A stretch of 64,000 bases of DNA from Elusimicrobiota bacterium (lineage in GTDB: Bacteria > Elusimicrobiota > Elusimicrobia > UBA1565 > UBA9628), in assembly GCA_035533295.1 (NCBI GenBank), contig DATLUA010000040.1:559-64558 (forward strand), given 5' to 3'. This document shows positions 33,856 to 34,563 of this stretch, piece after piece. The notes under the pieces were generated by a model. It did not search any database, was not told the origin of the DNA, and saw only the letters and a list, made by a program, of their open reading frames with translations. Position numbers and translations under genes: made by a program. How positions within the stretch are numbered: the first letter of the stretch is position 1; every line of letters starts with the position of its first letter.

Positions 33856-34563
33856 TCAAAACAAATTGTAGCAATGGTACTCGCACACGCCCAAGTCCAG
33901 GTGGCATTCACTGCGACTACAACCCCCACAGTTTCTGGGTATTGGCGAAGGACAAATTCTCGGCGGGTGCCCCCGCCCCGGTGGTGGCGGCGGTGGTGGC
34001 GGTGGCGGCGGTGGTGGCGGCGGCGGCGGCGGTGGCGGTGGCGGCGGTGGTGGTGGCGGCGGTGGCGGCGGTGGCGGCGGTGGTGGTGGTGGTGGCGGCG
34101 CGCCGCAGGTCAACGAGCAGCTCCCCGCGAATTGTTGGACGTTCCCGGCGATATCTTCACAGACTCCCCAGGTATCGTAGGGTGAAGAATCGGTGCTATT
34201 GGGACCCGCGGTCTTGCGCGCGGCCGAGGCCACGATGCAGGGCGCCGTCGGATCGTCCGCGCCGGCAAAGCTGTAAGGCAAATCGCCCCAATCCTGTTCG
34301 GTCAAGCACCCGCTGGTCACCAGCGCATTGGCGTTATCGCTGATGGGGCCCGTGAGAAACTGGCCGCCGTTGACGTGATTCATCCGGTTGCACGTCGCCA
34401 GCATTCCCACGACGGATGCGGCAAACTGCTGTTTAGAGATCTCTTCCGACTTGATGTATCTGGGCAAGGAAATCGCGGCCAGGACGCCGATGATGACGAG
34501 GACGACGAGCAACTCGGTCAGGGTGAAGCCCCGCAGCCGACGCATCTTCATCCTAAGAAGCAT
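33856..34563 (-). CDS. Type IV (IVa-like) pilin with 40-residue polyproline tract and Cys-rich C-terminal module
   Basis: RLRG|FTLTELLVVLVIIGVLAAISLPRY is a canonical prepilin. A pilin-like domain of ~120 aa follows, then P x40 (aa 156-195), then GRGHPPRICPSPIPRNCGGCSRSECHLDLGVCEYHCYNLF. Confidence 0.65.
   Translation of the reverse strand: MLLRMKMRRLRGFTLTELLVVLVIIGVLAAISLPRYIKSEEISKQQFAASVVGMLATCNRMNHVNGGQFLTGPISDNANALVTSGCLTEQDWGDLPYSFAGADDPTAPCIVASAARKTAGPNSTDSSPYDTWGVCEDIAGNVQQFAGSCSLTCGAPPPPPPPPPPPPPPPPPPPPPPPPPPPPPPPPPPPPPPPPGRGHPPRICPSPIPRNCGGCSRSECHLDLGVCEYHCYNLF
33979..34098. repeat. (GGN)40 trinucleotide simple-sequence repeat (CCN on coding strand) encoding the polyproline tract
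   Basis: 120 bp of uninterrupted ggt/ggc triplets on the plus strand. Confidence 0.9.

Follow-up and report, generated by a model that had tools for sequence, protein, structure and literature searches.

We put at about 0.5 the probability that the open reading frame (ORF) at 33856-34563 of the 64,000-nt stretch of DNA from an uncultured Elusimicrobiota bacterium analysed here (the window) genuinely encodes a modular type IV pilin-like protein, with the mechanism and history proposed below. The product would consist of a type IV pilin head, a linker of 40 consecutive prolines and a short cysteine-rich tail. A stalk of this kind in a pilin would surprise specialists, and it was found on one short-read contig, at a site that has demonstrably misled assemblers. 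The parts of the ORF are as follows.

33856..34563, minus strand: pilin ORF, 235 aa; probable start M7 at 34545, giving 229 aa
34528..34545, minus strand: class III leader MRRLRG, recognised from the sequence and from matches to PF07963 and TIGR02532
34099..34527, minus strand: mature pilin module, alpha1 helix (FTLTELLVV..., Glu at +5) and globular head ending in GSCSLTCGA
33979..34098, minus strand: (CCR)40 tract, the linker of 40 Pro; imperfect repeat with periods of 3, 9 and 18 nt
33859..33978, minus strand: 40-aa tail GRGHPPRICPSPIPRNCGGCSRSECHLDLGVCEYHCYNLF with 6 Cys, apparently a reduced and truncated copy of a 14-Cys domain

The pilin ORF and its N terminus

The ORF runs without interruption over 235 codons from its first ATG to the TGA at 33856-33858, which follows the 40-aa tail. 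A frameshift upstream of the proline tract, a possibility raised in the preliminary description of this locus, was not found in it. When read from the first ATG, the N terminus is MLLRMKMRRLRG up to the cleavage site and FTLTELLVVLVIIGVLAAISLPRY after it. However, the likelier start is M7 at 34545, which has an AGGA 5 nt upstream, agrees with the public gene call and yields a protein of 229 aa. The leader is then MRRLRG, i.e. six residues with Gly before the cleavage site, followed by FTLTELLVVLVIIGVLAAISLPRY; a leader of six residues is typical of type IVa pilins and of pseudopilins of type II secretion systems (T2SS).

The N terminus matches PF07963 (E 1e-7, 31.6 bits versus a cut-off of 21.2) and TIGR02532 (E 1.8e-7, 30.7 bits versus 16.3), and it shows every element of a class III signal peptide, with a leader that is short, basic and ends in Gly, about 20 hydrophobic residues and Glu at +5. 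The canonical prepilin N terminus described earlier for the ORF at 33856-34563 is thereby confirmed. The N-terminal 50-60 residues also resemble GspG and type IVa PilA, matching TIGR01710, the Myxococcus PilA model and pilins in the PDB. Nevertheless, TIGR01710 scores 39.2 bits against its cut-off of 88.85 and matches residues 11-70 only, with no match to PF08334, and the pilin scores 38 with the Myxococcus PilA model against a cut-off of 400. One relative, P0001, adjoins a GspF/PilC gene, whereas the present pilin gene does not. A promoter and terminator scan gave nothing informative.

Relatives of the pilin

A full HMMER scan with the 155-aa pilin head returned 3,051 matches, 150 of which were listed. 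Sixty-eight relatives were matched at E<=1e-10, many of them spanning the head end to end, and most relatives are about 170 aa long (median). The canonical G-F-T-L-x-E motif is kept in 137 of the 150 relatives listed; 14 of those listed end in a short PPP or PPPP, and the longest proline run among the 150 is 6. No relatives were found when the pilin head was compared with GTDB genomes and JGI metagenomes, and in a cluster look-up the 229-aa and 205-aa forms were both absent from the protein collection.

The members of the nearest subgroup share the head end F-x-G-S-C-x-L-x-C. The short forms of this subgroup (P0063 and P0066) stop at this motif, while in the long forms (P0064, P0069 and P0072) the head is followed by a Pro-rich linker of 43-67 aa and then by a 65-aa domain with 14 invariant Cys. 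The linker of the present pilin, about 45-48 aa, falls inside this range. Its sequence can be aligned with P0064 and P0072 through the end of the head into the Pro-rich region (36-37% identity, E 3e-27 and 1e-21), and it shares with the long forms the G-x-C-x-L-x-C motif, a linker of comparable length and the Cys spacing x7/x2/x4/x6/x3. There are also clear differences. The linkers of the long forms combine P, A, V, K and E, and their proline runs reach 5 at most, as against 40 in the present pilin; their 14 Cys and C-terminal beta-hairpin are absent here; and their N termini lack the canonical G/F/E5 prepilin motif, which is degenerate in P0063 as well. In a structure model, the head of one relative adopts the fold of a type IV pilin, and the relatives' 14-Cys domain was modelled at pLDDT 65-89, with the beta-hairpin at its C terminus.

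Taken together in this sequence comparison, head, linker and Cys module represent an inherited layout. This is a strong argument for assigning head and tail to one gene, and it also speaks against the tail being a chimeric partner or the result of chance read-through. The spacer and Cys-rich module proposed earlier are thus backed by homology to P0064, P0069 and P0072, with six Cys in register. The accompanying remark that pilins with polyproline rods are not known has to be narrowed: pilins with Pro-rich stalks do exist in metagenomes, but none of those found has a homopolymer. An unannotated pilin family with a Pro-rich stalk and 14-Cys or Hint add-ons widens the modular-pilin idea beyond modules that have database signatures.

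The Hint add-ons were seen in two relatives, P0071 (433 aa) and P0082 (313 aa), in which the pilin head is followed by a Hint (intein/hedgehog-like) domain. The head of P0071 is followed first by a Pro-rich stretch, then by a Cys/Gly-rich region and a run of ten Gly, and finally by the Hint domain. These fusions suggest autoprocessing add-ons.

The cysteine-rich tail

The tail contains six Cys and three His; the count of eight Cys given in the preliminary description is wrong. At least six Cys in 40 codons are expected with P ~0.003 by shuffling, given the 0.9% Cys of the window's genes. GC3 is 0.59 in the tail versus 0.79 in the head and 0.68-0.86 in the other genes of the window. The Cys are spaced x7, x2, x4, x6 and x3, and all six align without gaps to invariant Cys 12, 20, 23, 28, 35 and 39 of the relatives' 14-Cys domain, a register that is reached by 0.11% of random six-Cys placements (P = 0.0011).

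Measured against that domain, the tail has 6 of the 14 Cys, those at 2, 7, 13, 29, 45, 49, 51 and 62 being missing. The position of Cys 2 lies upstream of the aligned tail, and within the retained part three invariant Cys are replaced (C7 by H, C13 by P and C29 by H). The tail ends about 22 residues and four Cys before the end of the relatives' domain, exactly at the boundary between the cassette and the repeat R1 (see below). As far as the sequence goes, the module therefore appears truncated and reduced in comparison with its relatives. It could form a knob held together by disulfides or by metal.

Other approaches to the tail returned little. AlphaFold2 modelled both the head and the tail of the pilin itself at pLDDT <50. 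The similarity between the tail and the 14-Cys profile was not significant in hhalign, and no Pfam or PDB match was found for the tail or for the head alone. Word-index homology searches with the tail and with an alignment of the three 14-Cys domains yielded no candidates, both being weak negatives, as the index missed the query family altogether. The 14-Cys profile matched only a squash trypsin inhibitor and nsLTP at E ~0.02, which was treated as noise from Cys composition. We also considered the tail as an out-of-frame copy of the 3' region of the neighbouring PorV-like gene, and rejected this candidate because the similarity stops at the R1 boundary.

The polyproline tract

The run of 40 uninterrupted prolines reported earlier is present at aa 156-195 (33979-34098). 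It is encoded by 21 CCG and 19 CCA codons, i.e. by a pure (CCR)40 microsatellite, which TRF describes as an imperfect tandem repeat with triplet, 9-nt and 18-nt periods. CCA makes up 48% of the codons of the tract, versus 4% of the proline codons in 14 other genes of the window, and because this codon is otherwise rare the tract looks like an expanded microsatellite and not like a codon-optimised segment. Since the triplet repeat is in frame, slippage would alter the length of the stalk without destroying the ORF. A poly-Gly gene on the opposite strand of the tract was considered and rejected, as the window contains no such ORF.

The longest exact repeat inside the tract is 23 nt, so the tract is resolvable with reads of 100-150 nt that come from one genome. 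AlphaFold2 modelled the tract as extended, at pLDDT 76-91. A polyproline-II helix rises by 3.1 A per residue.

Long proline runs are rare in bacteria, and PPP alone accounts for 91% of the polyproline motifs of E. coli (PMC4218817). A proline homopolymer of 40 residues is far beyond the usual bacterial range. Forty consecutive prolines should strongly stall ribosomes, be translated slowly and depend heavily on EF-P (PMC5811046).

Genomic context and the strain-variable cassette

The surroundings of the pilin gene include the following features.

33770..33859, no strand: R1, one of two direct repeats and a remnant copy of the PorV-like gene's 3' end; supplies the pilin TGA
33860..35786, minus strand: strain-variable cassette (pilin and upstream gene) between R1 and R2, absent from haplotype L003
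34553..35776, minus strand: upstream secreted-protein gene, 407-aa ORF; likely start 35680, giving 375 aa
35787..35876, no strand: R2, the other direct repeat, 93% identical to R1; forms the PorV-like gene's functional 3' end
35787..37154, minus strand: PorV-like gene, with R2 as its 3' end
58117..58893, minus strand: PilD/GspO-type bifunctional prepilin peptidase; PF06750 (A24_N_bact) E 9e-34, PF01478 (Peptidase_A24) E 2.5e-19

Together with the upstream gene, which has the same orientation, the pilin gene makes up a unit of 2,017 bp. Direct repeats of 90 nt border this unit, and their differences are mostly synonymous in the PorV-like frame. R1 contains the pilin TGA, which comes one codon after the boundary of the repeat. 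The cassette is missing from L003, a co-occurring haplotype with a single copy of the repeat and a left side that is 6-9% divergent. This looks like a Campbell-type insertion, or a deletion, via short homology at the gene end. The PorV-like gene of the window is a clean mosaic: over the compared interval (35794-37180), it matches L003 perfectly from 36409 upwards and another contig, L005, just as perfectly from 36416 downwards. Across the gene, 152 mismatches (11%) separate L003 from L005. As the window-type PorV-like protein occurs on 4 long contigs, it is L003 and L005 that may be reciprocal recombinants or chimeras.

The ORF of the upstream gene overlaps the pilin ORF by 11 nt. Its predicted secreted product is conserved, has no Pfam or NCBIfam match and clusters with HVA66504.1 from an Elusimicrobiota MAG. 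A scan of GTDB genomes and JGI metagenomes with this gene found only orthologues of 86% identity, in a related MAG and a JGI contig (L007 6845-7915; L008 9980-11050), and there they stand alone, with no pilin beside them. These orthologues end about 16 residues earlier than the window copy, whose C-terminal extension overlaps the start of the pilin gene.

PorV-like, unknown, glycosyltransferase and TsaD genes are the neighbours of the pilin gene, and no type IVa or T2SS assembly genes (ATPase, platform, secretin) adjoin it within the window. The pilin is an orphan accessory gene in a recombination-prone spot, not a member of a pilus operon. The PilD-type peptidase at 58117..58893 is, judging from its domains, the enzyme expected to cleave and methylate it.

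Contig support for the tract

The window is 100% identical to contig k141_381023 (78,987 bp) of ENA ERZ27256799, the only contig on which the exact 229-aa pilin product is on record. The exact TsaD, PorV-like, 407-aa and 589-aa products are each found on four contigs of 50-200 kb. This disparity could be due to tract-length variation, gene calling or limits of the index.

Two contigs of ERZ27256814 enter the tract, from opposite sides. L005 carries the PorV-like gene, the 407-aa gene and the pilin head, and is identical to the window down to 34058, i.e. for about 14 Pro codons; after the head and 18 Pro, it continues into the antisense of an unrelated gene with its own ribosome-binding site (RBS), signal peptide and poly-Gly tract. 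L006 starts with an actinobacterial-like TrmH/GatD/MurT_C segment (GC 0.72) and switches at 34036 to 19 Pro codons, the identical tail, R1 and the sequence from the 589-aa gene onwards, where it is 99.98% identical to the window over 12 kb. Both contigs thus exit into foreign DNA and turn chimeric within the tract. Some 7 codons at its centre (34037-34057) are backed by the window contig alone, while the junction of tail, R1 and 589-aa gene is reproduced by L006 in a second sample. We regard it as likely that head and tail are contiguous. For the exact length of 40 prolines the odds are even at best.

The cross-genome chimeras themselves (L005 3140-4212; L006 1-2133) are joined at a (CCR)n/(GGY)n tract. 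As a practical warning, GC-rich low-complexity triplet tracts seed such chimeras in short-read metagenome assemblies.

Interpretation

The product of the gene is probably a modular type IV pilin, a putative function assigned from its sequence. In the proposed mechanism, PilD would cleave off MRRLRG after the Gly and methylate Phe1, and the alpha1 helix would then drive the pilin into a type IV filament or a pseudopilus. The 40-Pro tract would form a polyproline-II rod of about 12 nm, which would hold a small disulfide-bonded or metal-binding knob off the fibre. As for the history of the gene, slippage would have made the mixed Pro-rich linker of the family uniform and lengthened it into a (CCR)n microsatellite that stays in frame, and the Cys domain would have been cut to 6 of its 14 Cys as the gene landed in, or was cut by, the 2-kb cassette.

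Proteins of comparable design are known. In the modular pilins PilB and PilC of S. sanguinis and CofB of ETEC, the additional module is believed to be presented by the filament, probably at its tip (Raynaud et al. 2021, PMC8179133). Like them, the present protein starts with a pilin module that has a class III signal peptide, and a linker joins this to a putative C-terminal module. However, the known modular pilins have a short loop or a flexible linker in place of about 45 residues with 40 consecutive Pro, and they carry bulky modules with database signatures (vWA, lectin), whereas the module found here has 33-40 aa, is Cys-rich and has no Pfam or PDB match. It differs from them also in being encoded by an orphan gene in a variable cassette. 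Polyproline-II segments serve as extended spacers in the Pro-rich region of TonB and in the P-region of antigen I/II. Those are heteropolymeric repeats, in contrast to the proline homopolymer of this pilin.

As the pilin gene is an orphan and its product modular, a minor or tip subunit is more likely, as has been proposed for modular pilins (PMC8179133). The earlier suggestion that every subunit of the filament bears the module is not borne out, since the gene lies in a strain-variable cassette and does not encode the major pilin of an operon. The idea of a tethered Cys module itself is supported by the homology to the relatives' domain, although the module is truncated and reduced in comparison with them.

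The same truncation could be read as a sign of decay, i.e. of an accessory gene that lost its 3' end when the cassette was formed, underwent runaway triplet expansion and now gives a poorly translated, functionless product. The end of the tail at the R1 junction, some 22 residues and four Cys short, fits such a course, as do the three further invariant Cys replaced in the retained part, the low GC3 of the tail, the many rare CCA codons of the tract, the lack of the cassette in the co-occurring haplotype and the orthologues of the upstream gene that have no pilin partner. Against this, all 235 codons of the ORF are intact, its class III motif is perfect and its RBS good, the proline tract is in frame, and an even number of Cys (6) is kept in register; we consider decay rather unlikely. 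The head is identical in the window and L005, but identity without divergence information permits no inference on selection. It seems still less likely that the gene is a product of assembly, with head and tail not contiguous or the tract mis-assembled where a de Bruijn graph joined (CCR)n/(GGY)n stretches. What speaks for an artefact is that L005 leaves the tract after 18 Pro into the antisense of the signal-peptide/poly-Gly gene, that L006 enters it from the actinobacterial-like MurT_C/GatD segment with 19 Pro and the tail, that the seven or so central codons come from the window contig alone, and that the PorV-like gene is a mosaic of two haplotypes switching within 36409-36416. Nonetheless, relatives from independent assemblies share the head-linker-Cys order, the linker length and the Cys register, the DNA on either flank is from Elusimicrobiota, the two flanks adjoin each other in the haplotype that lacks the cassette, no exact repeat >23 nt occurs inside the tract, and the window-type PorV-like protein is present on 4 long contigs.

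Another reading accepts the gene but not the filament: the N-terminal helix would act as a membrane anchor only, and the protein would be a Cys-rich factor with a proline stalk, either periplasmic or tethered to the surface. The degenerate prepilin motifs of the three long-form relatives and P0063, and the position of the gene outside any pilus operon, are in line with this. We nevertheless find it improbable, as the present copy retains Gly-1, Phe+1 and Glu+5, the motif is kept in 137 of the 150 relatives listed and PilD is encoded in the window.

If the tract is real and translated, the modular pilin would, to our knowledge, contain the longest proline homopolymer known in a pilin, and it would offer a test case for extreme polyproline translation and its dependence on EF-P. 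It would also raise the questions of whether a rigid polyproline-II stalk permits a modular pilin within the filament body and not just at its tip, and whether in-frame microsatellites vary the reach of surface modules. A bolder proposal, which we regard as doubtful, is that the (CCR)n tract functions as a contingency repeat in frame, with slippage altering the length of a rigid polyproline-II stalk and thereby tuning the distance of the knob from a type IV filament. If so, this pilin and its relatives with a Pro-rich stalk and a 14-Cys knob or Hint domain would represent an undescribed class of pilus-displayed modules in uncultured bacteria.

Other pilus-related genes and elements of the window

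A further pilus locus was found in the window.

19718-27035, minus strand: complete Tad/Flp-type pilus locus, the sole pilus machinery in the window

It comprises two small Flp-like ORFs, TadE, RcpC, a secretin, two T2SSF proteins, a TPR protein and, as its ATPase, a 760-aa TadZ-like/CpaF fusion. The locus lies just downstream of genes for a PorV-like protein and a 1269-aa FlgD_ig/T9SS-tail protein.

An 857-aa protein (8601-11174, minus strand) combines a prepilin N-terminal motif with CarboxypepD_reg and Lamin-tail (LTD) domains and resembles a large modular pilin. A prepilin-type protein of 266 aa is encoded near it (4290-5090, minus strand), and the unannotated gene block at 809-11174 may be a minor-pilin cluster.

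Recurrent elements were also observed at gene boundaries (1317-1523, 2794-2927, 19588-19719 and 38803-38892). They consist of purine-rich units of about 10 nt (GGAACGGAAG-like), whose complement follows 30-80 nt later, and form hairpins of about 100 nt; the minus strand of 38795-38900 has a dG of -44 kcal/mol and a z of -3.7.
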